The position numbers and the translations under genes were made by a program. This document shows, in pieces, positions 13,761 to 45,062 of a stretch of DNA of 64,000 nucleotides. The notes under the pieces are model-generated. The model was not told the DNA's origin and ran no database searches. It saw nothing but the letters and a program-made list of their open reading frames with translations. The stretch's first letter is position 1; the number at the start of each line of letters is the position of its first letter. Source of the DNA: an uncultured Acidobacteriaceae bacterium. Lineage in GTDB: Bacteria; Acidobacteriota; Terriglobia; Terriglobales; Acidobacteriaceae. The DNA is taken from NCBI GenBank assembly GCA_963832755.1, contig CAWHVM010000003.1, positions 521,420-585,419 of the forward strand, given 5' to 3'.

Positions 13761-13816
13761 CCACGGGCTGGGTTGGCTCACGCCAGACAAACCGGGAACG
13801 AAGCCGCCGAGGTCCA

Positions 13817-14881: not shown

Positions 14882-14918
14882 GTTCCGAACTTTTCCTCTT
14901 TCCAGAATTGCGAAACTC

Positions 14919-15638: not shown

Positions 15639-15646
15639 AATTCCGG

Positions 15647-16834: not shown

Positions 16835-16881
16835 AAGTTCCCCAAATCGCACCGAGGTGCGCGCAGGAAGTTCCACGCGCA

Positions 16882-19017: not shown

Positions 19018-19061
19018 CGTAAACTCCGATCATCACTGCCACGTTTCTTCGGAAGTCAAGC

Positions 19062-20657
19062 TCAGATCCATCCCGCCTCCCTGCGCCCCACTCCCCCATA
19101 TTTTTTCCGCAGTTCCTTCTTTAATACCTTCCCCGTAGCAGTCTTGGCCAGGGTCTCGCAGAATTCGATCGATCGCGGGCATTTGTAGTGCGCCAAGTTC
19201 GAGCGGCAGAACTCAATGAGTTCCGCTTCCGTCGCGGCGGATCCTGGTCTTAGAATCACCACGCCTTTGGGGACTTCCCCCCACTTGTCGTCCCCGACTG
19301 CGATCACAGCAGCCTCGTACACGGCAGGATGCGCCAACAACGTTCTCTCTACTTCCAGAGACGAAATATTTTCTCCACCGCTCACAATGATGTCCTTCTT
19401 GCGATCGACGATCAGGATGTAACCGTTTTCCATGACCACGGCCATATCGCCGGTGTGAAACCAACCGCCGCGCAGGGCTTCGGTCGTAGCCTCGGGTTGC
19501 CGCCAATAACCAGCCATCACACTGTCACTGCGCGCAAGGAGTTCACCCATGGTCTCGCCGTCGCGAGGCACGTCCTGGTCCTCGAAATCCACGACCCGCA
19601 ACTCAACTCCTGGATAGGCATAGCCAGTCATCGACTGCAGCAGGTAGCGCTGCTCGGGTTCGCACACTACATCTGGTTTCAGCTCCGCCGTAGCGAGAGA
19701 AGGCGAGCACTCGGTCAGTCCGTATCCGGAAAAACAGTTGCAGCCGAGCTTCTGTTCGACGTCGCGCATTAGAGAAGGGAAAGATGCGGCGCCCCCGATG
19801 GTGATCCACTCCAGGCTGCTCAAGTCATACTTAGAACGTTCCGGACAATTGACCAACGCAGACGCCATGATGGGCACCAGGCTTAAGGAATGGACTCGCT
19901 CCCGCTCCACCAGGCGAAAGATCTCTTGCGGAATAAATCGCGCACTCATGACATGCGTTCCACCCACGAGGGTGACGGTGTGCGCCGCTCCCCAGCCATT
20001 GGCATGGAACAAAGGAATCGTATGCAGGAATACGTCTTTCGACTTTGCCTGGTGGTAGAGAGCTATGTTCATAGCGTGGAGATAGATGTTTCTGTGGGTG
20101 AGCATCACGCCTTTTGGATTGGCGCTGGTGCCGCTCGTGTAGAAGAGTTCGCAAACAGAATCCTCGTCAAATGAAGTGATTTCCGCGCGGTACGGTGTTG
20201 CGGCGTCGAGGAGTTGCTCGTAGTTTTGGGCAGCGAGCCACTCGGCCTGGGGAGTCGCATCGAGCAGGTAGCAGGACTCGACGCTGGTCAGTTTCGAGCG
20301 AAAAGAATCGACTAGACCAAGGAATTCCTGTCCCACAAACAACTTCGTCGCGCCGGAATCGTTCAGGATGAAAGCGAGTTCCTGCGGCGCGAGGCGGTAA
20401 TTCAGCGGCAGCAGGATTGCCCCGGCATCGAGAACTCCAAAGTACGCCTCCAGCAACCGATGACAATTCATGCTAAGAAAAGCAACTCGATCTCCCGCAT
20501 TCACTCCCGCCGCGCGCAGTGCGCCCGCCAATCGGGCCGCGTGATCGGCGAACTGCGTGTAGGTAAATCGCTGGTCCTGGCAAACCACCGCCGTCTTGTT
20601 GGGAAACTGCTGTTCCGCATAACGGAGGAAGCGGACGGGTGTGAGCGGAATATTCAT
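19062..20657 (-). CDS. AMP-dependent acyl-CoA synthetase/ligase
   Basis: 531 aa with FYTSGTSANPKGVMLTHRN, GYGLTE, WFHTGD and DRKKDIIVSGGENI. Confidence 0.9.
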   Translation of the reverse strand: MNIPLTPVRFLRYAEQQFPNKTAVVCQDQRFTYTQFADHAARLAGALRAAGVNAGDRVAFLSMNCHRLLEAYFGVLDAGAILLPLNYRLAPQELAFILNDSGATKLFVGQEFLGLVDSFRSKLTSVESCYLLDATPQAEWLAAQNYEQLLDAATPYRAEITSFDEDSVCELFYTSGTSANPKGVMLTHRNIYLHAMNIALYHQAKSKDVFLHTIPLFHANGWGAAHTVTLVGGTHVMSARFIPQEIFRLVERERVHSLSLVPIMASALVNCPERSKYDLSSLEWITIGGAASFPSLMRDVEQKLGCNCFSGYGLTECSPSLATAELKPDVVCEPEQRYLLQSMTGYAYPGVELRVVDFEDQDVPRDGETMGELLARSDSVMAGYWRQPEATTEALRGGWFHTGDMAVVMENGYILIVDRKKDIIVSGGENISSLEVERTLLAHPAVYEAAVIAVGDDKWGEVPKGVVILRPGSAATEAELIEFCRSNLAHYKCPRSIEFCETLAKTATGKVLKKELRKKYGGVGRREAGWI

Positions 20658-20669
20658 GAGTGCTGACTG

Positions 20670-21440
20670 TTACCAGGCAGTATGGCCTCCGTCTACGACG
20701 AGAACATGGCCCGTCACGTAGGCCGAGGCATCCGAAGCCAGAAAAATTGCCGCACCTTTTAGGTCATGGTCGCTGCCAAAACGGTGAAGAGGAATCTTGG
20801 CCAAAATTGACTCCTTATGGTGCTCAAGAATCCAGCTCGACATGTGCGTAGGAAACCAGCCCGGAGCGATGGCATTAACCTGGATATTGTGCGCCGCCCA
20901 CTTGCACGCCAGATCTTTGGTGAAAGCGATGACTCCGCCTTTGCTGGCGTGGTATCCGATGGCTTGCAGGTCCGAAGAAGCTCCGCCCAGGCCTGCCACC
21001 GAGGCTATGTTGATGATCTTGCCGCGCCCTTGCCCAATCATGGCTTTGCCCACGGCTTGCGAGAACAGAAAAGTTCCAGTGAGGTTCGTGTCCATGACCT
21101 TGTTCCATTGCTCCAGCGTCATTTCTTCCACCGGAGCTCCCCACGAAATCCCTGCATTATTAATAAGGATGTCGATGCGTCCAAAATTCTGCAGAGTCGA
21201 TGCCACCGCTTGCTGAATAGCCGCCGGATCTTTTACGTCGCAGCCGAGGGCGAGGGTCTTGATACCCAGGCTGGCCAACTCGACGGCCGCCTCGTCGCAC
21301 CGCTCCTTCTTTCGGGCGCACAGCACCAGATTCGCTCCCATCTCCGCCAATCCTTCGGCCATCTGGCGGCCAAGACCGATGGAGCCACCGGTGATGATGG
21401 CGACGCGCCCGCTAAGATCGAACAACTGCCTGGCATTCAC
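20670..21440 (-). CDS. SDR-family oxidoreductase
   Basis: GTG start. Motifs VAIITGGSIGLG, NNAG and YHASKGG. 256 aa. Confidence 0.9.
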   Translation of the reverse strand: MNARQLFDLSGRVAIITGGSIGLGRQMAEGLAEMGANLVLCARKKERCDEAAVELASLGIKTLALGCDVKDPAAIQQAVASTLQNFGRIDILINNAGISWGAPVEEMTLEQWNKVMDTNLTGTFLFSQAVGKAMIGQGRGKIINIASVAGLGGASSDLQAIGYHASKGGVIAFTKDLACKWAAHNIQVNAIAPGWFPTHMSSWILEHHKESILAKIPLHRFGSDHDLKGAAIFLASDASAYVTGHVLVVDGGHTAW

Positions 21441-23620: not shown

Positions 23621-24478
23621 CTAAAATTGTGCCATCGTCGTTTCAAAAGCCTGAGTCGTTAGACGTTCCAGCGGCCATTTTCGCAACTCCTCTGAGAGCA
23701 CTTCAATTCCCCATGGCCCGCGATATCCAGCGGCTCGCATCGCCGCAATAAAGCCTTTTACATCGAATTCTCCTTCGCCACAGAAACGGCGGTGGTTTAC
23801 GGTGTCTTCGTGCAGGCTCCAGGGACACTCAAACGTGCCGTCGTTTAGTTCGACGCTGATGATGTATTGCGCGGGAATGCGGCGTAGATCGCCGTAAGGA
23901 ATTTTGAGCTTCACGATGTGCCAGGTATCCAGACAAATGCCGCCATTGCTGGCGCCCGCGCCTTCGACGAGATTGAGTGAATCCTCCAATGTCCGGATCA
24001 TGGCGAACGGCATCAACTCGAACCCCACTCGGGTTCCGCGCTCTGCCGCCTCCACGCACAGCTGGGCGAATGCTTCGATCAAGCGCGGCATCGGCGCCGT
24101 TTCCTGATAGAAATCGCCGACCTTCACGTGATGTGCCTGCAAGGCTTCCGCAGCATCGAGCAGCATCTTCTTGCAAATATCGGATTGCCTCTTTCGCTCA
24201 CCGTCGAGGAACCAGTCGGTGAGGAATTCCAGTTCGACGTGCGTGATCCCGTTGTCGTCGAGAATCTGCTTCATCTCCTTGAACGTGCGCGTCCGGAGCA
24301 CATGCGCAAGGTCGGCGTGCCAGATACCAACGCCGGTGAAACCCGCTCTGGCAGCCGATTCCACGCGGTCCCGGAAATCGAAAGGGCTGTGTTCTCTGTC
24401 GGTGTGAGGAAGCCCGCAGGAAATGGTCCAGTAGGAAGCGAGCAGTTCAACCTGGCTCTTCATTTTCGTGGAGGGCAC
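23621..24478 (-). CDS. xylose-isomerase-like TIM-barrel protein (sugar phosphate isomerase/epimerase family)
   Basis: 285 aa with ...GFTGVGIWHADL..., ITHVELEFLTDWF and GFELMPF. Lies 4 nt downstream of E1 beta. Confidence 0.8.
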   Translation of the reverse strand: MPSTKMKSQVELLASYWTISCGLPHTDREHSPFDFRDRVESAARAGFTGVGIWHADLAHVLRTRTFKEMKQILDDNGITHVELEFLTDWFLDGERKRQSDICKKMLLDAAEALQAHHVKVGDFYQETAPMPRLIEAFAQLCVEAAERGTRVGFELMPFAMIRTLEDSLNLVEGAGASNGGICLDTWHIVKLKIPYGDLRRIPAQYIISVELNDGTFECPWSLHEDTVNHRRFCGEGEFDVKGFIAAMRAAGYRGPWGIEVLSEELRKWPLERLTTQAFETTMAQF

Positions 24479-24482
24479 ACTC

Positions 24483-25460
24483 TCACGCGGCCACGGCTTC
24501 CTGCGCCATCACAGATTTCACAGCCTCAATGATCTTGTCTTCATTGGGGACGACGTAGTTTTCCAGTGGTTCGCTGTAAGGGATGGGAGCGTCGAGAGCA
24601 GTCACCATTCTGAGTGCTCGCAAATCTTCGACAGCGTGTTCGGCGATCTCGCCGGCGATCACCGCGGCGGCGGACGAATGCCGCGGCGCCTGATCGACCA
24701 GCACGACACGGCCCGTCTTTTTCACGGAATCGACAATGGTCTTGACATCGAGCGGTGCGAGCGTCCTTGGGTCAACCACCTCGGCGCTAATCCCCTCCGC
24801 TGCCAGCTGTTCAGCAGCGGCCAGCGCCTTCTTCACCATCCAGCCGACGGCCACAATCGTTACGTCGGTGCCGGCGCGTTTGATGTCGGCAACCCCGAGC
24901 GGCACAACATATTCGCCCTCAGGCACTTCGCCTTTATCGAGCGTGAGCATGTAGGGATGCAGATACACGACCGGGTTATCGTCACGAATGGCTGCGGCCA
25001 TCAAGCCCTTCGCATCGGCCGGGGTCGAGGGCACGACAACCTTCAAACCGGGGATGCCCATCATGGTGTGATAAATGCAGTTCGAGTGCTGGCCGGCCCA
25101 TCCCGCGCAGAAGCCGTAGCCGGCTTTGAGCACCACCGGCACGCTCACTTGCCCGCCTGACATGTAGCGCAGGCGAGGAGCTTCGTTGATGACCTGATCG
25201 AAGGCGACCAGCATGAATTCGCTCATCCATAGCTCGACGATAGGACGCAATCCGGTCAAGGCCGCGCCAATTCCAATGCCGATCTCAGCCGTCTCCGAAA
25301 TCGGCGAGAGGCGCACACGCGTTTTGCCGAATTTCTTGAGCATGGGGTCGCGCTCCGTCATGGCCATATTCTGGCCGTAGAAAACCACGTTGTGGTCACG
25401 CTGCATCTCTTCGATGATGGCTGCGGCGATGGCATCGGCGTACATCATTTCTTTGGCCAT
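24483..25460 (-). CDS. TPP-dependent 2-oxoacid/acetoin dehydrogenase E1 component, beta subunit
   Basis: MAKEMMYADAIAAAIIEEMQRDHNVVFYGQN...SPISETAEIGIGIGAALTGLRPIVE. 325 aa. Confidence 0.9.
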   Translation of the reverse strand: MAKEMMYADAIAAAIIEEMQRDHNVVFYGQNMAMTERDPMLKKFGKTRVRLSPISETAEIGIGIGAALTGLRPIVELWMSEFMLVAFDQVINEAPRLRYMSGGQVSVPVVLKAGYGFCAGWAGQHSNCIYHTMMGIPGLKVVVPSTPADAKGLMAAAIRDDNPVVYLHPYMLTLDKGEVPEGEYVVPLGVADIKRAGTDVTIVAVGWMVKKALAAAEQLAAEGISAEVVDPRTLAPLDVKTIVDSVKKTGRVVLVDQAPRHSSAAAVIAGEIAEHAVEDLRALRMVTALDAPIPYSEPLENYVVPNEDKIIEAVKSVMAQEAVAA

Positions 25461-25469
25461 GTTCTCCTC

Positions 25470-26528
25470 CTACGCGTAAACATATTGCAGCGCCTCTTCA
25501 GGCGCGGGCAGCAGGCTTGCCAGGGCGAACTGCGCGGCATCCTCCACCTCAGCGCGAGCGGCAGCTTCAATTCGCCTGGCTGCGGCTTCGGTGAGGGTGC
25601 CGTCTTTCAGCAGGCGTGCACGAAAGCGTTTGATCGGATCCTTGGCTTTCCACTGTTCGAATTCTTTGCGGTTGCCATAGACCGCGACTGCCTCGTGCTC
25701 AGGAAACTGCGTCGGAAGCGGGGGAACGGTGATTACATTGCCGTGGGCGCTGAGCCGATAGAATTTCGTTTCGACCAGACTCGGTCCATGGCCGGCGCGG
25801 GCGCGATCTGCGGCTTTGGCAACAACTTTCTGCACGGCTATGGGATCCGTACCATCAACCGTTGCCCCAGGCATGCTGAAGGCTTGCGCTTTCTTCGACA
25901 ACGGATCGCCGGCAGCGGCATTGGCATCCTCCAGGCTGAAGTGCGTGTACGCCTGGTATTGATTGTTTTCGAGAACGTAGACGATAGGTAGTTTCCACAC
26001 CGCAGCCATGTTGAGTGACTCGTAAAACGCGCCTTGTTTCGAAGCGCCGTCACCAAAGAAGCAGTAGACGATCTGGCCGCTTTTCTTTACCTGCGCGGTG
26101 AGGGCAGCGCCTGTGGCATGGGCGATACTCTGCCCAATAATTCCGGAAGTCCCGGGAAAATACCGGGCCGGGTCGGCAAGGTGCATGGAGCCGCCGAAGC
26201 CGTGGCACAAACCGTCCCTGCGGCCAAACACTTCCGCCATCATCTTCCGCAGCGGAGTTCCGAGAACGATGGGGTATCCATGACAGCGGTAACTGGGCAT
26301 CACGAAATCCGTCTCGCGGCGCGTGGAGAGCGCCCCGACGATGCTGGCTTCAGCGCCGTCGCCCAAGTGAGAGTGTCCCCTGATTACACCGGGATGTTCG
26401 ATGAATGTGCGCTTGATGGACTCTTCGAATTCGCGGATGCGCACCATCTGGGTATACATCCATCGCAGTTGGCCGCTGTTTGCGTTCGTTTTTGGCCGGG
26501 CAGATTTCTTCGCATTCTTTTGGGGCAT
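25470..26528 (-). CDS. TPP-dependent 2-oxoacid/acetoin dehydrogenase E1 component, alpha subunit
   Basis: Start trimmed to MPQKNAKKS, with AGGAGG 6 nt upstream. TPP motif FFGDGASKQGAFYESLNMAAVWKLPIVYVLENNQY. Confidence 0.9.
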   Translation of the reverse strand: MPQKNAKKSARPKTNANSGQLRWMYTQMVRIREFEESIKRTFIEHPGVIRGHSHLGDGAEASIVGALSTRRETDFVMPSYRCHGYPIVLGTPLRKMMAEVFGRRDGLCHGFGGSMHLADPARYFPGTSGIIGQSIAHATGAALTAQVKKSGQIVYCFFGDGASKQGAFYESLNMAAVWKLPIVYVLENNQYQAYTHFSLEDANAAAGDPLSKKAQAFSMPGATVDGTDPIAVQKVVAKAADRARAGHGPSLVETKFYRLSAHGNVITVPPLPTQFPEHEAVAVYGNRKEFEQWKAKDPIKRFRARLLKDGTLTEAAARRIEAAARAEVEDAAQFALASLLPAPEEALQYVYA

Positions 26529-26538
26529 TGGGTGCCTC

Positions 26539-26823
26539 CTACTTCCTCGTTTTTGCAGTCTTTGCAGTCTTAACAATTTTTGCAGTCGATTCCGCGATCT
26601 CGCAGAGCGGATCTCCGACCGGGACCTCGGCCGTTTCATGCGCCAGAAGCTTTGCCAGTATGCCACTGAAAGGCGATTCCAACTCGTAGCTGACTTTTTC
26701 GGTCTCCAACTCGACTAGCGGCTCGCCGGCCTTCACGTGATCGCCTTCGCGCTTGAGCCATCGCACCACCACTGCTTTGGTGCTGGTGACGCCGCCGGAT
26801 TTGGGTACGATCACGCTTGTCAA
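26539..26823 (-). CDS. free-standing lipoyl-attachment-domain protein (no E2 catalytic domain)
   Basis: 94 aa. The sequence ...GEPLVELETEKVSYELESPFSGIL... matches the lipoyl-lysine motif context. Lys-rich tail KIVKTAKTAKTRK. Confidence 0.78.
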   Translation of the reverse strand: MTSVIVPKSGGVTSTKAVVVRWLKREGDHVKAGEPLVELETEKVSYELESPFSGILAKLLAHETAEVPVGDPLCEIAESTAKIVKTAKTAKTRK

Positions 26824-26865
26824 GAGTTGGTCCTCGGCTCAGATCACTGCTTCGCCATTTCACTG

Positions 26866-28440
26866 CTAATGCACTTGCCGTCCGGCATGTTCCCAGTATT
26901 GCGCGCGTATCTTTTTTCTGTCGATCTTGCCGGCTACGGTTTTGGGAATCTCTTCGCAAAATGCAACAGACTTTGGAGCTTTTACTCCTCCCAGCTTCTC
27001 TTTGCAGTGGGAAATAATGGCTGCCTCGCTCAGGGATACTCCCGGGCGAAGTACAACGAATGCCTTGACTGCTTCTCCCCATGTATCATGAGGAACCCCA
27101 ATCACGGCACACTCGTGAATCTCGGGCAGCGCCATCACTGCCGCTTCCACCTCGGCGCAATAGACATTAAAGCCGCCGGAGATGATCATGTCTTTCTTCC
27201 GGTCGACGATGTAGACGTAGCCTTCTTCGTCCAGGTAACCGACATCGCCGGTGTGGTGCCAGCCGTGCGTGCGGATTTCCGCCGTGGCCTCAGGCATCTT
27301 GTAATAGCCGCCACAGATGAGCGAGCCGCGCGCCACGATTTCTCCTCGTTCACCTGCCGGGAGAATTCGGCCGGCATCGTCCATGACGGCGAGGCGCACC
27401 GCCAGTGTGGGCTTGCCGCAACTGGCCAGGCGTTCGGGATGATCACCGCCAGCCGCCGCGGCCACAGTCTTCGCATCGAGAAAGGTCAGGATCATCGGCG
27501 CTTCCGTTTGACCGTAGGACTGACACATGCATGGGCCGAAGACTTCGACCGCGGCCTTCAATTTGTCGGGCGCGACAGGTGATCCCGCCAAAAGAAAACC
27601 GCGAAGGCTTGAGTAGTCAAAGTCGCGCACCTGCGGATGCGCCAGCAGATTGTAAAGCGCGGTTGGCGGAAGATAAAGATGCGTGACGCGATAGTGCTCA
27701 ATATTGCGAAGCACTTCAAGCGCATCAAACTTAGGCATGACGATGTGGGTCGCTCCCACCGAACACATCACGAACGCCAATACTCCCGCAGCATGGGACA
27801 GCGGAGCTGTGTTCAAACACACAGGATGTTCGACATCGCCCCGCCAGCAGTGAGTGGCCATTTCCGTCATCGTGCCCAACGCAAGATTGGTCACACGAAC
27901 GCCCTTCGCTGGACCGGTGGTTCCCCCTGTCGGCACCAGTCCGGCGAGCCGGTCAGGGTTGCCGTAGGCATCGCCCCAATCGGGGACTTTCGCACCCGCT
28001 CCCTGTTTCATGAAAGCCTGCAAGGATGGATATTCCCCATCTTCGCGATCGAGGCAGATGATACCCCGCAAGGAGGGTACGCGCCGTTTGATATCGGCGA
28101 CGCTGTCGCGAAACTGGCTGTGATAGAACAACCACGCCATCTCTACGTAATTCATATATTCTACGTTGGCGTCGATGGCGTTGCGGTAATTGATTGGTAC
28201 CCATACTGCCCCGGATCGCATGATGCCCAGCATGCAAAACAGAACTCTGGCGTCATTGTGCGAGTAAATGCCGGCAGACTCCTGGTCGCGCAATCCGCCG
28301 GCGCAGAGAGCGCGTGCGATGTTTTCGGTTGCGGTGTGCATCTCGCGATAAGACCAGGAAACCTCATCGTCGGCGGCGATGATCGCGGTGCGCTCGAAGT
28401 TGGCCTCGACGCCCTTGTCGAAATAGTCGATCGCACGCAT
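26866..28440 (-). CDS. AMP-dependent synthetase/ligase (class I adenylate-forming enzyme)
   Basis: Start trimmed to MRAIDYFDKGVEANFERTAIIAADD. Motifs PTGGTTGPAKGV, SYGQTE, WHHTGD and DRKKDMIISGGFNV. Confidence 0.9.
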   Translation of the reverse strand: MRAIDYFDKGVEANFERTAIIAADDEVSWSYREMHTATENIARALCAGGLRDQESAGIYSHNDARVLFCMLGIMRSGAVWVPINYRNAIDANVEYMNYVEMAWLFYHSQFRDSVADIKRRVPSLRGIICLDREDGEYPSLQAFMKQGAGAKVPDWGDAYGNPDRLAGLVPTGGTTGPAKGVRVTNLALGTMTEMATHCWRGDVEHPVCLNTAPLSHAAGVLAFVMCSVGATHIVMPKFDALEVLRNIEHYRVTHLYLPPTALYNLLAHPQVRDFDYSSLRGFLLAGSPVAPDKLKAAVEVFGPCMCQSYGQTEAPMILTFLDAKTVAAAAGGDHPERLASCGKPTLAVRLAVMDDAGRILPAGERGEIVARGSLICGGYYKMPEATAEIRTHGWHHTGDVGYLDEEGYVYIVDRKKDMIISGGFNVYCAEVEAAVMALPEIHECAVIGVPHDTWGEAVKAFVVLRPGVSLSEAAIISHCKEKLGGVKAPKSVAFCEEIPKTVAGKIDRKKIRAQYWEHAGRQVH

Positions 28441-28457
28441 GACCAGATTTCCGCTAG

Positions 28458-29567
28458 TCAGTGAGTCAGACGAACCTTGGCGAGACCATGCTCTTCCAAA
28501 ACCCGCAGTATTTCCCGATGTCCAAAGGCTTCCGCGGGAGAAGCAAAACCAACCTTGCGCGGTGCCGCAAGCGCCAGATGGTGTGCCGCAAACGCCTGTA
28601 GCAACCCCGTCTGGCGATAGCAACAGGTGCCGAAGACCACGCACTGCGCGTAATCGGTGGAACCTCGGCCGACCACGACGTCGATGGTGCGCTGCTCGCG
28701 CGGGTTTTCGCGAGGCGGGGTTCCGGCTTGCACCGCATTCGCCATCTCAGCCAGCTTCTTTTCCTGCTCCGCTTTCGGCAGCGGACGAATTTGTTCTTCA
28801 AACATTTTCTCCGTGGCCGCGACGCCTTCCATGATCTGACGATCGAGCAAACCACCCATCGAGCGCACATTCGCGATCTGCGGGTGGTTCTTGAACCAAA
28901 CTGGTTGCGGAAAGCCTCCCCACGCCAGTGCCAATTGAGTTTGCAAGTAACCTGGAATGCTCACATCATAGCGAGTCGCGCGCGGCCAGGCCTTGTATTG
29001 ATTCTGCTCCAGATAATAGGCGTCGGTTTGAATGACTGCAAAAATCGTTTGCGTGGAACCGAATGTCGGAATGCCCTTAAACATGGTGACGGTTTCGAGC
29101 GTATCGATTGCCCCGGATTCCAGGCAAAGTCTGGCCGAGGCGTCGCTGACCGCGCACATAAAGGCAGTGGCTGGCGCGGCGAGAAGGCCGCGCTCGCGGA
29201 ATTTTTCGGCCCATTTCTCCGCGACTTCCCGAATCCAGGCCTGTTCGCCGCCAATATCAATGTAATGGCAACCAGCTTTCAAAGCCGCTTCGATGACTCT
29301 CGGTCCGTTATAGATAAATGGTCCGGCAGTGTTGCAAACCACCTTGGCCCCATCGAAGATACGCGCTAAGTCTTCGAGGGTGCCGGGAGTCTCCACGATC
29401 TCAAAGTCGGCCGTTTCAATTCCCGGGACATGATCCATCACCTGCTTGATTCTCGACGCACTTCTGCCCGCGGCGATGAAAGGTGTGTTGTACTCGCGGA
29501 GGTATTCGACGATCAATCTGCCGGAAAACCCGTTGGCTCCGTAAACCACCACCGGCCTTTTGCTCAT
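28458..29567 (-). CDS. saccharopine-dehydrogenase-like NAD(P)-binding protein
   Basis: MSKRPVVVYGANGFSGRLIVEYL...VVCNTAGPF...HYIDIGGE. 369 aa. Confidence 0.82.
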   Translation of the reverse strand: MSKRPVVVYGANGFSGRLIVEYLREYNTPFIAAGRSASRIKQVMDHVPGIETADFEIVETPGTLEDLARIFDGAKVVCNTAGPFIYNGPRVIEAALKAGCHYIDIGGEQAWIREVAEKWAEKFRERGLLAAPATAFMCAVSDASARLCLESGAIDTLETVTMFKGIPTFGSTQTIFAVIQTDAYYLEQNQYKAWPRATRYDVSIPGYLQTQLALAWGGFPQPVWFKNHPQIANVRSMGGLLDRQIMEGVAATEKMFEEQIRPLPKAEQEKKLAEMANAVQAGTPPRENPREQRTIDVVVGRGSTDYAQCVVFGTCCYRQTGLLQAFAAHHLALAAPRKVGFASPAEAFGHREILRVLEEHGLAKVRLTH

Positions 29568-29816
29568 GTGCGACAGCTCCTAGGAAGGTAGTCTGTTGTT
29601 GGCCTATGCACCATTCCGCCGGGGCGACCCCTCGAAGCAAAACTTGAAGCGCAACGCCGCCGGCCCCGGCGAATGGCCGCACCCGCCTGTTGGCTAGCGT
29701 GAACCCGGCGCGCCAAGCCAAACGAATCCCTCTGGTTCAGAGGCCGATTGTAGGCTAAAGTATCTTTTTTGCTAGTAGGCACTTTTTTGTAACCTTTGAT
29801 CCTGAAGGAGACTAAT

Positions 29817-30215
29817 GTGGAAGAATTTTACTGCCCCGTGAAGCTGACCACAGACGTGATTGGCGGCAAGTGGAAACCGCTGATCCTCTTTTATCTCGAA
29901 GGCGGGACCAAACGATTTGGGGAGCTTCGCAAACTAATTCCGGGAATGACTAAGAAAATGCTGACCCAACATCTGCGTGACCTGGAACGCGATGAAGTCA
30001 TTCGCCGGAAAGTCTATGCCGTGGTGCCGCCAAAGGTGGAATATTCGCTGACCAAACATGGAGAAAGCCTCAAGCCCATCCTCAAGCTCATGTCGGCGTG
30101 GGGCGCGAAGCACCGCAAGCGGTACGGTATTCCAAAGAGCAAGAACCGGCCGTTGACGCTCCCAAATTCTCCAAGACAATCCGCGGCCTCGCAGCAGACG
30201 CTGTCAAGCGGCTAG
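29817..30215 (+). CDS. HxlR-family transcriptional regulator
   Basis: [58 protein letters not shown] prefer the GTG at 29817 (AAGGAG 6 nt upstream) over the TTG at 29796. Confidence 0.87.
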
Positions 30216-30239: not shown

Positions 30240-31346
30240 TCAGGCGCGCTTCCACGTCACAGCAGGCGGACCCCAAACTTCCTCGGCGGTTTCGGCGACC
30301 AGGCGTAGCTTGGCCTCCTCATCGGCCACGCTTACCAGGTTGCCCTCGATCGTAGATGCAAAACCGCACTGCGGACTGAGCGCCAGCCGCTCCAAAGGGA
30401 TGAACTGCGAGGCTTGCTCGATGCGCTGTTTCAGTTCGTCCTTGCTCTCCAGGGCTGGCTTTTTGGAGCTGACGAGCCCCAGGACGACCGTGCGATCTTC
30501 GGGAACCTGGCGCAGTGGCTCGAAACCGCCCGAACGCTCATCGTCATATTCAAGCAGAAAGCGGTGAAAACGCGTTTTCTGAAACACCTTGGTGATCGGG
30601 CCATAATCGCCGGAAGCATAGAACCGGCTTTGATTATTGCCGCGGCAAAGGTGCAGGCCAAAAATAACGCCCGGATGATTGCCAATGACCGCATTGTCCA
30701 TTTCGGTGGAAAGATCGAGCAACCGGTCGGGATCATTGCCACGCTGGCGGTATCCCTCGCGCAACCGAGGGTCGAGCAAAGCGGCATATTGCGGCGAGTC
30801 AATCTGAATATATGTGCATCCCAGGCGGATTAACTCTTCCACTTCGTCCCGCAAGATGTCCACCAGATCGGCCAGATAACCGTCAATCTTGGGATAAGCG
30901 GCAGACGACTTCTTGTTGTCGTAATAAGCGGCTGCCTGCTGGGCGCTGATCATGGTTGTTTTTGCAGGATGATTTGTACGTGCCCGTAAATAGGTAAACT
31001 CCTCGGCGCACAAGGGGCGTTTCCGGCGGAGTTTAGAAACCACGACCGGCCGGGGCTGCACTACCTCCTCGCCTTTTTCGTTGCGGAAAGGAATGGCCCA
31101 TCCGCCGAACTTATCGAAGCCCTCCACGGCATCGATCAAGTGCCCGTAGAAAGCGTAGCGGCGCATCTCGCCGTCGGTGAGCATTTCCAGCCCGGCGCGC
31201 TTCTGCAACTCGACGGCTTCGTCAACCGCCCTGTCCTCGAGAGACTTGAACTCCGAATGGCCGATCTGGCCTTTCTCATGACGTTCGCGAGCGTCCTTCA
31301 AATACGAAGGTCGCAACAGACTTCCGACAACGTCGCTTCGATACAC
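30240..31346 (-). CDS. short cobalamin-independent methionine-synthase-like (MetE C-terminal/Meth_synt_2) zinc methyltransferase
   Basis: 368 aa. MYRSDVVGSLLRPSYLKDARE...LTDGEMRR. Putative Zn ligands in GLHLCRGN and LSPQCGF. Confidence 0.82.
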   Translation of the reverse strand: MYRSDVVGSLLRPSYLKDARERHEKGQIGHSEFKSLEDRAVDEAVELQKRAGLEMLTDGEMRRYAFYGHLIDAVEGFDKFGGWAIPFRNEKGEEVVQPRPVVVSKLRRKRPLCAEEFTYLRARTNHPAKTTMISAQQAAAYYDNKKSSAAYPKIDGYLADLVDILRDEVEELIRLGCTYIQIDSPQYAALLDPRLREGYRQRGNDPDRLLDLSTEMDNAVIGNHPGVIFGLHLCRGNNQSRFYASGDYGPITKVFQKTRFHRFLLEYDDERSGGFEPLRQVPEDRTVVLGLVSSKKPALESKDELKQRIEQASQFIPLERLALSPQCGFASTIEGNLVSVADEEAKLRLVAETAEEVWGPPAVTWKRA

Positions 31347-31358: not shown

Positions 31359-33527
31359 TCAATGCTTTTGGACATGGGCATCCTGATTGCGGCGAAAGAT
31401 CACGTACGCGCGGATTGCGATGGCATCATCGCGAGAAAGTTCCTTGGAGAAAGAAACCATTCCTTGTGATTGCAAATCGCCCCGCAACACAATCTCGAAC
31501 CAGGTGTCATCGGTGAGGGTGCTGCTGCGCCGCAAATCGGGCAGCACTCCTCCGCTCACGGCGACATCGCCGTGGCATCCGGCACAATATCTTTGAAAAA
31601 GCCGTTCGCCGTTGTGAACGGTTGCAGAACTCGCTCGATTCGGCAGCGCCGTCAGCGGTGGCGGCTCGGTGGCTTGCAGGGGCGGCAGGCTGGCCTTTCC
31701 TCCGAGTTCGAAAACCAGCATGCGGCTGACGTTGCGTACGCGCCCGGAGGCGAAAGAAACCTCGCCCGCGGCCAGCGGGAACACGCCGCCCCAACCGGCA
31801 AGGACAGCTACATACTGTTTGCCGTCGGCCTCGTAGGTCACTGGGCCGGCCATCACTCCGGTCTGAGCTGCGAATGACCACAGCTTCTCGCCCGCGTCGG
31901 CATGGTAAGCTTCGAAGTTTCCGCTGGCTGTTCCTTCAAAAACCAGATTTCCCGCCGTCGCAAGCGTTCCGCCATTCCAGGGTCCGGGCCGCTCAATCGT
32001 CCAGACAGCCCTTTGCTGCACTGGATCCCAGGCCACTAGTTTTCCTCTCACCGTCCCGAGAATTGCTTTTTTCGCTTTCGGATCCTGCGGCAAGCCTGCC
32101 GCCACTACATCGATGCCGTAATTCGGAGCCAGCTTCTTCGCTTCGAAAATGTCGGGCAGTTTGTATTTGAAGCCGGCATCGTTGACCGGAATGTAGGCAA
32201 GATGGGTGACTGGGCTGTACGACATCGGTTGCCAACTGTGCGCCCCGATGGGCCCAGGCACGATGGGTGCAGGATCGGCCCCAGCGTACCTCGCAACGGC
32301 GGTTTCGATGGGACGACCGGTTCTCAGGTCTACTCCGCTCGCCCAGTTGACAAACGTGTACGGCTTGGCGGAAATAAGGGCGCCGTTCGTGCGGTCGATG
32401 ACATAGAAGAAGCCATTTTTCGGCGCCTGCATTAAGACTTTACGAGTACGCCCATCGATGTTGAGATCGGCGAGGATGATGTCTTCGTCGGAGTCGAAAT
32501 CCCACGCGTCGCCGGGGTCTTCCTGATAGTGCCAGATGTACTCTCCGGTCTCCATTTTGAGCGCAACAATGGAGCAGGTGAGCAAATTGTCGCCGCCCTT
32601 CGGGCTGCGAAATTTTTCGCTCCACGGAGTACCGTTGCCGGTGCCGATGTAGAGCTGATCGAGTTCGGGATCATACGCCATCGCGTTCCACACTGTGCCG
32701 CCGCCTCCGAGCTTCCACCACTCACCACTCCAGGTCCGGGCAGCTTTTGCGAGAATCGGACTTTCGAACGGCTTCGAGGGGTCGCCTGGCACGGTGTAAA
32801 AGCGCCATACCAATTTTCCGGTGTCGCTGTCATAGGCCGAAACGTAACCGCGCACTCCAAATTCCCCGCCTCCATTGCCGATAAATACTTTGCCCTTGAT
32901 TATTCGGGGAGCGCCGGTGATGGTGTAGCGAAAATTGGGATCGATGGTAAGCGTTTCCCAAACAAGATGGCCGGTCTTCCTATCCAGAGCGATCAGGCGT
33001 CCATCGAGGGTGCCGAAAAATATTCTGCCGTTCCAGGCCGCAACTCCCCGGTTCACCACGTCACAACATGCGTTCACTGCCCAATTGCCGGGGACTTTGG
33101 GATCATAGGACCAAAGCAGTTGCCCGGTGGCGGCATTCAACGCGAAGACTTTGCTCCATGCGCTGGTAAAGTACATCACGCCCTCGACCACGATCGGAGT
33201 TGCTTCCTGGCCTCGGTTCGTGTCCAGGTCGTAATGCCAGGCCAATCCGAGCTGCGAGATATTCTGATCATTAATCTGAGTCAACGGGCTGAAATGCTGC
33301 TCGCCGTAAGTGCGGCCGTAGGTCATCCAGTTTCCCGGCTCGCGATCGGGATTGGTGATGCGGGATTCGTTTACATCCGCAGGTCGGACTGGGTTCACAG
33401 AAGCGACTTTTGTTTGACGGCACGACGAGATCGATGCGAGGACAACTGTGATCGCGAGAAGTCTGATGGTGCGATCCAAGTGGGTTTTCGGATTTCCCAT
33501 TCGCATTGAGGCAGACGTACGAGTCAA
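31359..33527 (-). CDS. PQQ-dependent quinohemoprotein alcohol dehydrogenase (C-terminal cytochrome c domain), probable lipoprotein
   Basis: Vicinal Cys ring NACCDVVNRG, W-rich propeller repeats, and C-terminal haem site YCAGCHG. N-terminus ...VVLASISSC is lipobox-like. The start may be M1, M8 or M10. Confidence 0.9.
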   Translation of the reverse strand: MTRTSASMRMGNPKTHLDRTIRLLAITVVLASISSCRQTKVASVNPVRPADVNESRITNPDREPGNWMTYGRTYGEQHFSPLTQINDQNISQLGLAWHYDLDTNRGQEATPIVVEGVMYFTSAWSKVFALNAATGQLLWSYDPKVPGNWAVNACCDVVNRGVAAWNGRIFFGTLDGRLIALDRKTGHLVWETLTIDPNFRYTITGAPRIIKGKVFIGNGGGEFGVRGYVSAYDSDTGKLVWRFYTVPGDPSKPFESPILAKAARTWSGEWWKLGGGGTVWNAMAYDPELDQLYIGTGNGTPWSEKFRSPKGGDNLLTCSIVALKMETGEYIWHYQEDPGDAWDFDSDEDIILADLNIDGRTRKVLMQAPKNGFFYVIDRTNGALISAKPYTFVNWASGVDLRTGRPIETAVARYAGADPAPIVPGPIGAHSWQPMSYSPVTHLAYIPVNDAGFKYKLPDIFEAKKLAPNYGIDVVAAGLPQDPKAKKAILGTVRGKLVAWDPVQQRAVWTIERPGPWNGGTLATAGNLVFEGTASGNFEAYHADAGEKLWSFAAQTGVMAGPVTYEADGKQYVAVLAGWGGVFPLAAGEVSFASGRVRNVSRMLVFELGGKASLPPLQATEPPPLTALPNRASSATVHNGERLFQRYCAGCHGDVAVSGGVLPDLRRSSTLTDDTWFEIVLRGDLQSQGMVSFSKELSRDDAIAIRAYVIFRRNQDAHVQKH

Positions 33528-34109
33528 TCACACGTCGAAGAAAACTGTTTCCCGATCTCCCTGAAGTCGCACATCGAACCGCCAATATCCGGGACGGGCA
33601 GACTCTGGTCGGGCTGTTAACGTGTCGCGCCGCTCAGGTGGAATCAACTGGAGGATCGGATCCTCGTCGTTGGCGGCATCTCCGGCGAAATAAACTCGCG
33701 TGTAGAGCTGCTTCAGCATTCCGCGAGCGAAAACCGCCAGGGTCAGATGCGGCGCTTGCAAATTACCGTTGGGAACACGTCCAGGCCTTATCGTTTCCAG
33801 TAAGCAACTGCCATCTTCTCCGGTGGCGATGCGGCCAAAGCCGATCCATCCCGGGTCGGGCGTTTTGGGTTGCGGGTCGTCGGGATGGTTGTATTTTCCG
33901 TTCGAGTCGGCTTGCCAAATTTCCAGCATCGCATCGTCAACCGGGGCGCCGTCACCGTCGAGTACACGAAAGGTGATCCAGACGCGCTCGCCCCTAGCCT
34001 GCGGACCCGCGACACACCCGATGCGGTGTTCGTCGGTGGTCAGCTCAATCCGGAAATATGGGCCAACCGTCTGCGAGGGTGTCGGGACCAGATTCGTATC
34101 AGGTTTCAA
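33528..34109 (-). CDS. pcaG: protocatechuate 3,4-dioxygenase alpha subunit
   Basis: MKPDTNLVPTPSQTVGPYFRIELTT...LEIWQADSNGKYNHPDD. 193 aa. Overlaps the pcaH stop by 11 nt. Confidence 0.9.
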   Translation of the reverse strand: MKPDTNLVPTPSQTVGPYFRIELTTDEHRIGCVAGPQARGERVWITFRVLDGDGAPVDDAMLEIWQADSNGKYNHPDDPQPKTPDPGWIGFGRIATGEDGSCLLETIRPGRVPNGNLQAPHLTLAVFARGMLKQLYTRVYFAGDAANDEDPILQLIPPERRDTLTARPESARPGYWRFDVRLQGDRETVFFDV

Positions 34110-34824
34110 AAGGTGTGGCCTCCGGCCCGCGCAGCACGATGTCGAATTTGAAACCCTTCGCCCATTGCGGCCGCGTAGTCTCCAGATCGAACTTCGAAAT
34201 CAGCCGCAGTCTGGCTCGTTCATCCGGTATGGATTGGAAGATGGGATCGTAGTCGAACAGTGGATCACCGGGAAAATACATCTGCGTCACCAGACGCGAG
34301 ATAAAAGCCGTCCCGAAGACTGAAAAGTGAATATGCGCGGGGCGCCACGCGTTGAAGTGATTGTTCCAGGGGTATGCTCCGGGCTTGATGGTGATGAAGC
34401 GGTACGCGCCGTTTTCATCGGTCATGGTTCGACCGGCGCCACTGAAATTGGGATCGAGCGGGGCGGGATGCTGGTCGCCGATGTGTTTGTACCTTCCGGC
34501 GGAGTTCGCCTGCCAAATCTCGATGAGTGCGTTGGGAATAGCCCGCCCGTTACTGTCGAGCACGCGTCCGCTCACGATGATGCGCTCGCCGATCGGCTCA
34601 CCAGAGTGCTGGCAGGTCAGATCGTGATCGTTTTCCCCAACCTTGTCATGCCCAAAAATGGGTCCGGCAATCTCCGACAGGGTGTGTGGCAGAATGACGA
34701 GAGGCTTGAGTGGCGCGCGTTTAATGGTCGTCCGATAAGGCTCATACAAAGAGGGTGGCTGACTGCCCTTGGGCGGCCGAGCATAGGCCTTGACTGAAAC
34801 TCGCGCGTTCACCCCGGAATCCAT
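34099..34824 (-). CDS. pcaH: protocatechuate 3,4-dioxygenase beta subunit
   Basis: Start trimmed to MDSGVNARVSV. Contains IEIWQANSAGRYKHIGDQH...NAWRPAHIHFSVFG. 241 aa. Confidence 0.9.
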   Translation of the reverse strand: MDSGVNARVSVKAYARPPKGSQPPSLYEPYRTTIKRAPLKPLVILPHTLSEIAGPIFGHDKVGENDHDLTCQHSGEPIGERIIVSGRVLDSNGRAIPNALIEIWQANSAGRYKHIGDQHPAPLDPNFSGAGRTMTDENGAYRFITIKPGAYPWNNHFNAWRPAHIHFSVFGTAFISRLVTQMYFPGDPLFDYDPIFQSIPDERARLRLISKFDLETTRPQWAKGFKFDIVLRGPEATPFET

Positions 34825-34937
34825 GCCACTCCAATTCCCGGCGCGCGCGGATTGGGTGTTGCGGCCACCCGCAAGAACCCAAGTCCCTCGCTTCGCTCGG
34901 GATGACAAGCAAAAAAGATAGTCCACTGCTGCGCCGT

Positions 34938-36431
34938 TCAAACTCGCGCGCACACCGACTTGCCTTCGGTATACAACTCTAACGCCGGTTTGCCCCACTC
35001 GCGTCCCCAACCCGACTGCTTGTATCCCCCGAAAGGCAGAGCGGAATCGAAGACGTTGTAGCAGTTGATCCAAACCGTCCCAGCTTTCAACTTCTTCGCC
35101 AGGAGATGTGCCTTGCTGATGTCGCGTGTCCATACGGCTGAGGCCAGACCGTAAATGCTGTCGTTGGCGAAGCCTGCCACTTCACCCAGGTCGCCGAACG
35201 GAATCGCCGTTACCACCGGACCGAAAATTTCTTCGCGGACTACTTTCATGCCCGGCTTCACGTCGACCAGCACCGTCGGTTCAACAAAGTATCCAGGGCC
35301 ATCGATCTTCTTGCCACCGATCACCGCTTTAGCGCCGTCCTTACTGCCGGAATCGAGATAGCCGCAGACTCGATCTTGCTGTTCTTTTGAAACCAGTGGC
35401 CCCATGTTGTTGGCGGGATCAATTCCCGGACCGATGTGAAAACTCTTGGTGAAGTCGGCAACGCCTTCCACCACTTTGTCGAAAATGCTCTTATGTGCAA
35501 ACAGTCGCGAGCCGGCGGCGCAGATTTCGCCCTGGTTAAAGAAAATCGCCATGGCGCTGCCCGGGATAGCCTGTTCCAAGTCGGCATCCGCAAGAACAAC
35601 GTTGGGTGACTTGCCTCCCAACTCCAGCGAAACCTTTTTCAGATTTCCGCTGGCGGCGTTCAGAATGATCTTGCCAACTTCGGTCGATCCAGTGAAAGCA
35701 ATCTTGTCTACATCCGGATGGGCGGCGAGCGCAGCGCCCGCGGTTTCGCCAAAACCCGGCACAATGTTGACCACACCCTCGGGGAAGCCTGCCTCCATGA
35801 CCAACTCCCCAAGTCGCAGCGCGGTCAAAGGAGTTTGTTCGGCGGGTTTCAAAACAACGGTGCAGCCCACGGCCAAGGCTGGACCCAGCTTCATCGACGC
35901 CATAATCAGCGGAAAATTCCACGGAATAATCTGACCCGCAACCCCCACCGGCTCGCGTAGCGTATAAGCCAGGTATTGTCCCCCCGGCGCAGAAATCGGA
36001 ATGGTGGCGCCTTCCACCTTTGTCGCCCAGCCCGCATAGTACCGAAACGCGTCCGACACGGTCGGGATGTCCACAATACGGGAGAAGAAGACTGGTTTAC
36101 CGTTGTCCAGAGTTTCCAGTTCGGCCAATTCTTCGTGATGCTGGTCAACCAAATCGGCCAGTTTCCACAGCAGTCTGCCTCGTTCCGACGGCGACATCTC
36201 CTGCCATGGGCCGGATTCGAAAGCCTTACGCGCAGCTTTGACCGCCAGATCGATGTCGGCTTTATCCCCTTCCGCTACCCGGGCCAACACCTCGCCCGTG
36301 GCTGGGTTGTACGTCTCAAAGGTCTTGCCGGAAACCGCATCAACCCATTTGCCCCCGATCAACATTTTCCGGGGTTTGGCGATGAACTCGCTAACACTGC
36401 TTTGTATTTGCGGCATTACTGTGGTGGCCAT
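34938..36431 (-). CDS. NAD(P)-dependent aldehyde dehydrogenase
   Basis: 497 aa. Motifs FTGSTEVGK, ELGGKSP and FFNQGEICAAGSR. AGGAGG 5 nt upstream of the ATG. Confidence 0.92.
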   Translation of the reverse strand: MATTVMPQIQSSVSEFIAKPRKMLIGGKWVDAVSGKTFETYNPATGEVLARVAEGDKADIDLAVKAARKAFESGPWQEMSPSERGRLLWKLADLVDQHHEELAELETLDNGKPVFFSRIVDIPTVSDAFRYYAGWATKVEGATIPISAPGGQYLAYTLREPVGVAGQIIPWNFPLIMASMKLGPALAVGCTVVLKPAEQTPLTALRLGELVMEAGFPEGVVNIVPGFGETAGAALAAHPDVDKIAFTGSTEVGKIILNAASGNLKKVSLELGGKSPNVVLADADLEQAIPGSAMAIFFNQGEICAAGSRLFAHKSIFDKVVEGVADFTKSFHIGPGIDPANNMGPLVSKEQQDRVCGYLDSGSKDGAKAVIGGKKIDGPGYFVEPTVLVDVKPGMKVVREEIFGPVVTAIPFGDLGEVAGFANDSIYGLASAVWTRDISKAHLLAKKLKAGTVWINCYNVFDSALPFGGYKQSGWGREWGKPALELYTEGKSVCARV

Positions 36432-43541: not shown

Positions 43542-43544
43542 AGT

Positions 43545-45040: not shown

Positions 45041-45062
45041 GGTAGCTGTTCGATCCGGCTGT

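Follow-up and report, generated by a model that had tools for sequence, protein, structure and literature searches.

The window analysed here is a 64-kb stretch of DNA from an uncultured Acidobacteriaceae bacterium (contig CAWHVM010000003.1). It contains an operon in which the alpha and beta subunits of a thiamine pyrophosphate (TPP)-dependent E1 enzyme (E1ab) are encoded next to a free-standing lipoyl protein, together with a DUF5938 oxidoreductase, an acyl-CoA ligase and a xylose-isomerase-like TIM barrel (Table 1). Families were assigned to the proteins of the window by Pfam and NCBIfam profile matches and by structure-database comparisons. The six open reading frames (ORFs) of the operon were confirmed on the minus strand, with intergenic gaps of 17, 42, 7, 9 and 4 nt in the order from DUF5938 to the TIM barrel, and all six products match their Pfam families well over cut-off. 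This agrees with an earlier note on the same DNA, which had described six tightly packed minus-strand genes (gaps of 4-42 nt) and a divergent HxlR-type regulator. In the reading that we favour, this regulator would control the unit. A promoter and terminator scan of the locus gave no signal above shuffled expectation.

The 94-aa lipoyl protein matches PF00364 (Biotin_lipoyl) and E2-type lipoyl domains only, and did not match the GCV_H fold (PF01597). Its best NCBIfam match is the N-terminal lipoyl domain of AcoC (9.3e-18). The lysine of its ETEKV motif (K43, encoded at 26695-26697), singled out in the earlier note as the lipoyl-lysine of a lipoyl-only protein, aligns with K41 of Escherichia coli AceF and is invariant in 82/82 aligned lipoyl-protein sequences. 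The AlphaFold2 (AF2) model (pLDDT 82) superposes on the L2 domain of the human pyruvate dehydrogenase complex (1.1 Å over 78 columns) and has a canonical lipoyl fold, with K43 in the hairpin turn that joins strands 35-40 and 45-49. A structural alignment without a modifiable lysine, which the earlier note had named as grounds for abandoning its proposal, was thus not what we found. Homologues are 73-110 aa long and end in a short, variable tail that is modelled with low confidence. No peripheral subunit-binding domain (PSBD) or catalytic domain was found in the 94-aa protein or its homologues, and the tail is not conserved. A search of 50%-identity representatives was dominated by multi-lipoyl E2s, whose repeat scores are summed, and short single-stretch matches alone are informative; these comprise ~15 clusters of single-domain proteins of 88-136 aa that are 55-78% identical to the lipoyl protein. 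Sequence and model together indicate a bona fide free-standing lipoyl domain. Because its lysine is invariant and structurally exposed, the role of mobile carrier suggested in the earlier note is plausible.

Both E1 subunits retain their catalytic residues. The TPP motif of E1 alpha (GDG-X26-NN), described as intact in the earlier note, is kept as GDGA...ENN in the alignment to human PDHA1. The catalytic histidine is carried by a YRLSAH loop that fits YRxxxH and that we take to correspond to the loop of Geobacillus stearothermophilus E1 alpha. In E1 beta, PISE and QHS align with Glu59 and His128 of G. stearothermophilus 3duf_B. Compared with human PDHA1, 11 residues are inserted in E1 alpha directly after the catalytic histidine loop (residues ~265-285, the VPPLPTQFPEHEAVAV region). 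In pyruvate dehydrogenase (PDH), access to the active site is gated by this loop, which also touches the lipoyl domain. E1 alpha scores 295 bits against the PDH equivalog TIGR03182 (cut-off 394), and E1 beta 308 bits against the best NCBIfam PDH model, a subfamily model (cut-off 321); E1 alpha is ~40% identical to plasmid AcoA-like proteins and scores 170 bits to human PDHA1. Since both subunits fall below the cut-offs of the best PDH models and the genes sit in a catabolic island, the comparison supports an E1ab that is not a housekeeping PDH. The same two observations count against the possibility, raised in the earlier note, that the pair is simply the housekeeping E1 of PDH or branched-chain 2-oxoacid dehydrogenase (BCKDH).

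Searches of the window by tblastn and phmmer with E. coli AceF and Lpd detected neither an E2 catalytic domain nor an Lpd-type E3 at E<1, and a query with the stand-alone E2 of Shinella was likewise negative. The second Biotin_lipoyl protein of the window is the biotin carboxyl carrier protein (BCCP) of a carboxylase, not an E2. The absence of an E2 core and an E3 from the 64 kb, a central claim of the earlier note, extends to its relatives: across 84 loci, and within ±10 kb in 80 related genomes, no AceF-type catalytic domain, stand-alone E2 of the type found in Shinella (see below) or Lpd was detected at E<1. As a positive control, the AceF query picked up this Shinella protein (7e-26). The genome is likely to encode a shared E3 elsewhere.

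The oxidoreductase encoded first in the operon joins an N-terminal Sacchrp_dh_NADP Rossmann domain to a C-terminal DUF5938 domain (270 bits, cut-off 27). More than 3600 homologues were found; the best 120 are 76-91% identical, and every named source among them is a Terriglobales/Acidobacteriia metagenome-assembled genome (MAG). An exact-sequence look-up of the window protein gave no match. The best Foldseek matches are carboxyspermidine dehydrogenase and saccharopine reductase. Because only the Rossmann half is modelled confidently by AF2 (residues 156-302 fall below pLDDT 50), we restrict ourselves to fold-level statements. The protein has no cysteine conserved across phyla and no flavin-family Pfam match. 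A role as lipoamide oxidoreductase of the flavoprotein-disulfide type was considered for it and ruled out because of the saccharopine-reductase-type fold and the lack of a conserved cysteine. No paper mentioning DUF5938 was found in our literature search. The ligase lies below all NCBIfam equivalog cut-offs, and its nearest Protein Data Bank (PDB) entries are Mycobacterium tuberculosis FadD8 (4e-85) followed by feruloyl-CoA synthetase. These matches identify it as a putative generic ANL enzyme of FadD8-like or feruloyl-CoA-synthetase-like character.

Table 1. Positions of the operon, its neighbours and other features within the 64-kb window
Feature	Position	Strand	Assignment or content
Xylose-isomerase-like TIM barrel, 285 aa	23621-24478	-	Pfam AP_endonuc_2, 7e-27
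E1 beta, 325 aa	24483-25460	-	Pfam Transket_pyr and Transketolase_C
TPP-dependent E1 alpha, 353 aa from ATG	25470-26531	-	Pfam E1_dh, 6.6e-66
Free-standing lipoyl carrier protein, 94 aa, TTG start	26539-26823	-	Pfam Biotin_lipoyl, 1e-17
ANL acyl-CoA ligase, 524 aa from ATG	26866-28440 (ORF extendable to 28644)	-	Pfam AMP-binding and AMP-binding_C
DUF5938/Sacchrp_dh_NADP oxidoreductase, 369 aa	28458-29567	-	Pfam DUF5938, 1.9e-80, and Sacchrp_dh_NADP; first gene of the operon
HxlR-family transcriptional regulator	29796-30215	+	Pfam HxlR, 3.6e-34; divergent, 228 nt from the first operon gene
MetE-like Meth_synt_2 protein	30240-31346	-	Pfam, NCBIfam; recurrent neighbour outside the core
Pyrroloquinoline quinone (PQQ)-dependent alcohol dehydrogenase with cytochrome c domain	31359-33527	-	Pfam, NCBIfam; recurrent neighbour outside the core
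PcaHG	33528-35133		Ortho ring-fission route; upstream of the operon, as are the MetE-like and PQQ dehydrogenase genes, an aldehyde dehydrogenase and a TonB receptor
PcaDC fusion and PcaB	within 50859-62327		Ortho ring-fission route
Meta ring-fission route	within 50859-62327		LigM-like GCV_T O-demethylase, MTHFR, extradiol (glyoxalase-fold) dioxygenase, PIG-L, LigK-like RraA, LigU-like PrpF, Amidohydro_2
Hpe/Acv-like cluster	41170-48283	-	HAD hydrolase, carboxyltransferase (HMGL-like and PYC_OADA), BCCP, PPDK_N kinase subunit, cupin, SRPBCC, PEP-utilizer
Second Biotin_lipoyl protein	43545-44078		BCCP of a carboxylase
Beta-oxidation-like block, downstream of the operon	11516-21440	-	Short-chain dehydrogenase/reductase (SDR), ligase, FadB, thiolase, His-phosphatase, APH kinase, acyl-CoA dehydrogenase; TetR and an alcohol dehydrogenase are also downstream of the operon
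PcaD-like hydrolase	9569-10291		Alpha/beta hydrolase
Nearest c23-type hydrolase	58132-58863		Alpha/beta hydrolase

Conservation and modularity of the locus

Synteny was examined in a census of 80 loci, each from a different species-level genome (Terriglobia), obtained by a contig scan with E1 alpha as the query. The loci were picked at an E1 alpha similarity of at least 71%, so the conservation described here applies within one class, and the relatives are MAG fragments of ±10 kb. Because greedy ORF calling in these high-GC loci gave spurious antisense ORFs (clusters c14 and c20), genes were scored by tblastn and six-frame phmmer. A sufficient flank was required for each gene to be scored. Homologues of E1 alpha (71-93% identity) and of DUF5938 (76-91%) come almost entirely from Terriglobia MAGs, the nearest being Candidatus Sulfotelmatobacter. 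The locus is also present in bins labelled 'Patescibacteria group bacterium' (L064) and 'Candidatus Udaeobacter' (L078), with E1 alpha at 73-75% identity and typical acidobacterial neighbours; these two contigs are probably mis-binned.

The lipoyl ORF lies immediately upstream of E1 alpha in 77/78 loci, and E1 beta follows E1 alpha in all 77 that could be scored. DUF5938 was found within 7 kb upstream on the same strand in 50/59 loci and the ligase upstream of E1 in 45/59; both are present in 44 of the 59 and neither in eight. A divergent HxlR homologue accompanies 48/59 loci and a PQQ-dehydrogenase homologue 38/59. In three loci (L031, L032 and L036) HxlR directly precedes lipoyl-E1ab without DUF5938 and ligase, and in three others (L054, L065 and L083) DUF5938 is present and the ligase absent. 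The TIM barrel, which resembles Lmo2234 (PDB 2g0w, 1.6e-24) and the dehydroshikimate dehydratase QuiC N-domain (5hmq, 3e-18; NCBIfam, 5.7e-21), follows E1 beta in 26/67 loci and is an optional accessory. Where it is missing, other lineages carry c16, MetE-like and MTHFR-like genes after E1 beta.

The flanks fall into at least three architectures. In type A, that of the window, an aldehyde dehydrogenase, PcaHG, the PQQ dehydrogenase and the MetE-like gene lie upstream and the TIM barrel downstream. In type B, the upstream side carries PcaHG, PcaIJ-like CoA transferases and IclR. The ligase is separated from the lipoyl gene by an SCP2-type thiolase and a PQQ-like gene, and c16 (487 aa), a MetE-like gene and an MTHFR-like gene (with DUF5981) lie downstream. 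Type C carries hydantoinase B, URO-D, TetR, Amidohydro_2 and a thiolase upstream. Since the lipoyl-E1 alpha-E1 beta core is kept while its flanks are rearranged, chance juxtaposition is excluded, and the lack of conserved synteny that the earlier note had named as a possible outcome was not observed.

Outside this class, DUF5938 and the ligase travel without the E1 genes. On plasmids of Phyllobacterium, Variovorax, Azoarcus KH32C, Burkholderia cenocepacia and Tsukamurella, DUF5938 homologues are 36-52% identical over at least 95% of their length. Most of these cassettes read SDR-DUF5938-AMP ligase-thiolase ('lipid-transfer protein'), the thiolase being SCP2-type in some; that of Tsukamurella (Actinobacteria) consists of SDR-DUF5938-ligase only. 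DUF5938 adjoins the ligase in Variovorax, Azoarcus, Tsukamurella and Phyllobacterium; in Burkholderia it lies three genes away, with thiolase, hydratase and acyl-CoA dehydrogenase genes between. The plasmid cassettes sit among beta-oxidation, lva-like or APH/His-phosphatase/acyl-CoA-dehydrogenase genes and never with E1 or lipoyl genes. Within another Terriglobales lineage (L002-L004, 10001-15159; DUF5938 76% identical) the order is HxlR-DUF5938-ligase followed by DUF6282, PIG-L and RraA-like genes, which ties the pair to genes of meta-cleavage lower-pathway type instead of lipoyl-E1ab-TIM.

The invariant functional unit is therefore lipoyl, E1 alpha and E1 beta, and DUF5938 with the ligase is a second, independent cassette that is separable from it. 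The six-gene set of the earlier note is conserved beyond chance; the idea of one indivisible machine is not supported, given the separable DUF5938-ligase pair and the TIM barrel count. E1ab with a small lipoyl protein recurs in Alphaproteobacteria. DUF5938-ligase recurs in Alpha- and Betaproteobacteria and in Actinobacteria, without E1 or lipoyl genes. For DUF5938, the cross-phylum pairing with an acyl-CoA ligase and, in most loci examined, a thiolase provides a first context.

Relation to known lipoate-dependent systems

Close counterparts of the acidobacterial module were found on megaplasmids of Sphingobium RAC03, Novosphingobium PP1Y and N. resinovorum (L090, 3284-11232; L095, 8905-13642; L096, 8947-13655), where E1 alpha, E1 beta, a lipoyl protein of ~80 aa and a PQQ dehydrogenase are encoded in that order; no E2 was found in these three loci. 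The PQQ dehydrogenase is likewise directly beside E1-lipoyl in the type-B Acidobacteria. The sphingomonad modules are surrounded by TonB receptor and SDR genes; an ABM monooxygenase, a cupin and an M24 peptidase are annotated in RAC03 only. Within a sugar cluster of a Shinella plasmid (L089, 3060-12602), the genes for E1 alpha, E1 beta and an 80-aa lipoyl protein are followed by those for GlpD and a class II aldolase, after which comes a 225-aa stand-alone E2 catalytic protein. The surroundings also include lipA and two sugar kinases, and this split system may serve the lipoyl-dependent cleavage of a ketose phosphate. The alphaproteobacterial clusters, annotated but unstudied, thus share E1 alpha, E1 beta and the small lipoyl protein with the acidobacterial module, and those of the sphingomonads also share the lack of an E2 and the adjacent PQQ dehydrogenase. 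They differ in gene order (E1 alpha-E1 beta-lipoyl), in an E1 alpha that is only ~40% identical and in having no DUF5938-ligase, and Shinella differs further by its separate E2 catalytic protein, lipA and sugar-cluster setting. Conversely, the proteobacterial and actinobacterial SDR-DUF5938-ligase-thiolase cassettes share with the acidobacterial locus the DUF5938 protein and, except in Burkholderia, the directly following ligase, but have no E1 or lipoyl genes.

Among characterized systems, acetoin dehydrogenase (AcoA/AcoB, AcoC and AcoL) is one of the closest. It too has tandem genes for a heterotetramer-type TPP E1 alpha/beta, and the lipoyl domain found here is closest to the AcoC N-terminus. 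A CAT-like (chloramphenicol acetyltransferase-like) E2 core, which was not found in the acidobacterial loci, is dispensed with in the acetoin system, an AcoC-type E2 (L091) consisting of a lipoyl domain, a PSBD and an alpha/beta-hydrolase domain in place of that core. The acetoin system is catabolic and inducible and cleaves a C-C bond next to a carbonyl, as the acidobacterial enzyme is predicted to do. In contrast to AcoC, the lipoyl domain is here a separate 94-aa protein encoded upstream of E1 alpha, with neither a PSBD nor a fused hydrolase. No AcoL is encoded locally, the regulator is of HxlR type and the setting is aromatic rather than butanediol catabolism.

The PDH and BCKDH complexes share with the acidobacterial proteins the E1 folds, the TPP motif, the catalytic His and Glu and the fold of the lipoyl-lysine domain. 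Measured against such a 2-oxoacid dehydrogenase complex, the locus has E1 alpha, E1 beta and the lipoyl-lysine, but within ±10 kb in the 80 genomes no E2 core, PSBD or E3; its E1 proteins score below the NCBIfam cut-offs and the active-site loop of E1 alpha bears the 11-residue insertion. The H-protein of glycine cleavage is similar in concept, being a small soluble lipoylated carrier that serves a decarboxylase without a structural core. However, it belongs to PF01597 rather than PF00364, its partner depends on pyridoxal phosphate rather than TPP, and it is off-loaded by T-protein. Literature searches on DUF5938, stand-alone lipoyl proteins, lipoyl/E1 in lignin catabolism and the G-diketone and acetovanillone pathways returned no description of E1ab with an E2-type stand-alone lipoyl protein, and the papers found on diketone, acetovanillone and beta-O-4 evolution are silent on TPP, lipoyl, E1 and PQQ. 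The gene combination, which the earlier note had not recognised as any described pathway, accordingly has no match among the systems found in the literature. By sequence, the module appears to vary the theme of the acetoin and 2-oxoacid dehydrogenases in a way not characterised so far, and it is joined to an acyl-CoA ligase cassette that is separate and widespread.

Possible fate of the acyl group

With a confidence that falls a little short of even, we favour a reading in which the locus is a composite catabolic operon of a Candidatus Sulfotelmatobacter-like acidobacterium, built of separable modules, where lipoyl-E1ab performs an oxidative C-C cleavage of the acetoin dehydrogenase/PDH type and both off-loading and re-oxidation take place in trans. 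In the proposed direction, TPP on E1ab would attack the carbonyl of a 2-oxoacid, alpha-ketol or alpha-diketone side-chain intermediate, CO2 or an aldehyde would leave after cleavage of the C-C bond next to the carbonyl, and the acyl unit would be transferred reductively to the lipoyl group on K43 of the free carrier. The carrier would diffuse freely, like H-protein, instead of being tethered to an E2 core. Acyl transfer to CoA and re-oxidation of the dihydrolipoyl group would then fall to proteins encoded in other places, for which the housekeeping E2 and E3 are the simplest candidates. DUF5938 and the ligase would act as an independent acid-activating and reducing cassette in another step of the same pathway. 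In vitro, E1, E2 and E3 all accept free lipoyl domains, and H-protein is an example of a free lipoyl shuttle in nature, which makes it chemically reasonable for discharge to CoA and re-oxidation to occur in trans.

Several points weigh against this reading. The use of a housekeeping E2 in trans is speculative, and canonical E1ab docks to E2 via the PSBD, a domain that the 94-aa carrier does not have. Substrate, activity and lipoylation are assigned by prediction, and an acetoin-type and a 2-oxoacid-type E1 are not separable by sequence alone. The search for E2 and E3 is limited to the window and the ±10-kb loci. The C-terminal half of the DUF5938 model is poor, so that any chemistry assigned to this protein is tentative. 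Finally, DUF5938-ligase is coupled to E1-lipoyl in 75% of loci, and this could mean a more direct functional link.

Such a link would exist in an integrated cycle without E2, much as the earlier note had imagined it, in which the acyl-carrier is hydrolysed, the ligase remakes the acyl-CoA and DUF5938 re-oxidises or reduces the lipoyl carrier. Five genes are indeed co-linear (gaps 7-42 nt) and occur together in 44/59 genomes, with no local E2 or E3. Yet DUF5938-ligase is found without lipoyl and E1 in three phyla, and E1-lipoyl lacks DUF5938 and ligase in 8/59 acidobacterial loci and in the sphingomonads. Hydrolysis of a thioester followed by its ATP-spending resynthesis would moreover be energetically wasteful. 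Because the two units are separable in both directions, and because DUF5938 has a saccharopine-reductase fold with no flavin-family match and no cross-phylum cysteine, neither a ligase that replaces E2 nor a Rossmann protein that re-oxidises the carrier is supported, and we consider the cycle quite improbable. A biosynthetic scheme similar to carboxylic acid reductase (CAR), where the ligase loads the dihydrolipoyl carrier and DUF5938 reduces the acyl group, or E1 carboligates, is very improbable. An A-domain-like ligase, a thiol carrier and a Rossmann reductase would formally resemble CAR, but many genomes carry the ligase and DUF5938 with no lipoyl protein, the surroundings are catabolic throughout, and the loading of a lipoyl thiol by an ANL enzyme has, to our knowledge, no precedent. 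Non-oxidative reactions are also within the reach of E1-type and transketolase-type enzymes. E1ab might thus be a decarboxylase, a carboligase or a transketolase-like enzyme next to a lipoyl protein that is vestigial or serves another enzyme, as the lack of a local E2 and E3 would allow. The position of the lipoyl gene in 77/78 loci, its invariant lysine and well-conserved fold, and the same E1-lipoyl pairing in Alphaproteobacteria leave little probability for this. That the genes stand together by chance, or encode a plain housekeeping PDH/BCKDH E1, agrees with the similarity of E1 alpha and E1 beta to PDH E1 families; it is effectively refuted by the census, where synteny is kept in 80 species-level genomes despite rearranged flanks, and is further countered by the sub-cut-off scores, the catabolic island and the HxlR regulator.

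Since acetoin systems, with AcoC, do without the CAT-like core, a serious rival, though on balance an unlikely one, is that the E2 core is replaced by a non-canonical acyltransferase with a gene in the neighbourhood. An AcoC-like alpha/beta hydrolase, an SCP2-type thiolase or the TIM barrel would in this case move the acyl group from the carrier to CoA. The AcoC-like character of the lipoyl domain speaks for it, as do the SCP2-type thiolase between ligase and lipoyl gene and the 241-aa alpha/beta hydrolase (c23) of type-B loci, for which the best NCBIfam match is the hydrolase part of AcoC (8.8e-12). No candidate is universally linked to lipoyl-E1ab, however, the TIM barrel being present in only 26/67 loci. 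No AcoC-type hydrolase is fused or adjacent to the lipoyl gene in the window, where the nearest c23-type hydrolase is 30 kb away and another hydrolase is PcaD-like (Table 1), and phmmer with the AcoC C-terminal domain returned PcaD-like proteins only. As a split AcoC domain, c23 was not accepted, having a weak profile match only, being missed by phmmer with the real AcoC C-terminus and being unlinked in the window; it is retained as part of this rival. Another protein, c16, which follows E1 beta in type-B loci, was considered as a hidden E2 and rejected. Pfam, NCBIfam and the PDB gave no match to it, it contains an S-adenosylmethionine methyltransferase-like motif (EIGVGLG), it travels with the MetE-like and MTHFR-like genes, and the window does not encode it.

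Compared with the favoured trans reading, a bolder proposal is that lipoyl-E1ab is truly E2-independent, the free carrier taking an aroyl or acyl group from a lignin-derived aryl ketol, diketone or glyoxylate and handing it to a thiolase-like protein, an alpha/beta hydrolase, the ligase or DUF5938. We regard this as unlikely. If it is true, Acidobacteria and sphingomonads would share a new lipoate-dependent catabolic architecture, and a new step would be added to the bacterial degradation of lignin. In textbooks, lipoate-dependent oxidative cleavage is built around the E2 core. The module described here keeps E1 and the lipoyl arm and drops the core in at least 80 acidobacterial species, which calls for an explanation of how the carrier passes on its acyl group and is recycled. 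It may mark an unrecognised side-chain cleavage of lignin-derived ketols, diketones or arylglyoxylates, compounds that are of interest for lignin valorisation. The lignin-aromatic islands that surround the module belong to Terriglobia, which are abundant, poorly cultured bacteria of soil and peat.

The aromatic-catabolic island

Profile matches of its proteins show the window to be a dense aromatic-catabolic island, and the operon lies, as the earlier note had stated, between a beta-oxidation block and genes for lignin-aromatic catabolism. The recurrent neighbours (PQQ alcohol dehydrogenases, an aldehyde dehydrogenase, methyltransferase-like proteins and PcaHG) suggest that the substrate is a methoxylated phenylpropanoid or an aryl-C2/C3 compound, the side chain of which would be oxidised before its cleavage. 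Cleavage of an alpha-hydroxyketone, alpha-diketone or 2-oxoacid, at which the earlier note had hinted, is consistent with this setting and with the AcoC-like lipoyl domain.

Meta and ortho ring-fission routes are both encoded in the window, upstream of the operon. The upstream side also holds a set resembling the acetovanillone carboxylase genes, here in an acidobacterium; the Hpe/Acv enzymes phosphorylate and carboxylate acetovanillone and 4-hydroxyacetophenone in Rhodococcus and Sphingobium (PMC9618137; 10.1101/2022.04.28.489975). On the Azoarcus KH32C plasmid (L092, 6693-15752), thiolase, His-phosphatase, phosphotransferase, SDR and acyl-CoA dehydrogenase genes flank DUF5938-ligase, as comparable genes do downstream of the operon. 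We take the downstream block to resemble 4-oxo/4-hydroxy-acid catabolism of the lva/ACAD10 type.

In type-B loci, the PQQ-dehydrogenase-like gene directly upstream of the lipoyl gene (L052, 8028-9635; cluster c22) matches TIGR04528, 'acido-empty-quinoprotein group A', below cut-off; this family was defined for Acidobacteria without PQQ synthesis, so PQQ is a putative cofactor of the product. Small MetE-like proteins recur beside the E1 module, in the window as well as in L066 (13521-14531), L051 (14584-16152) and L056 (12074-13537). Together with the MTHFR-like protein and c16, the MetE-like protein could form a non-canonical aryl O-demethylation or methyl-handling system.

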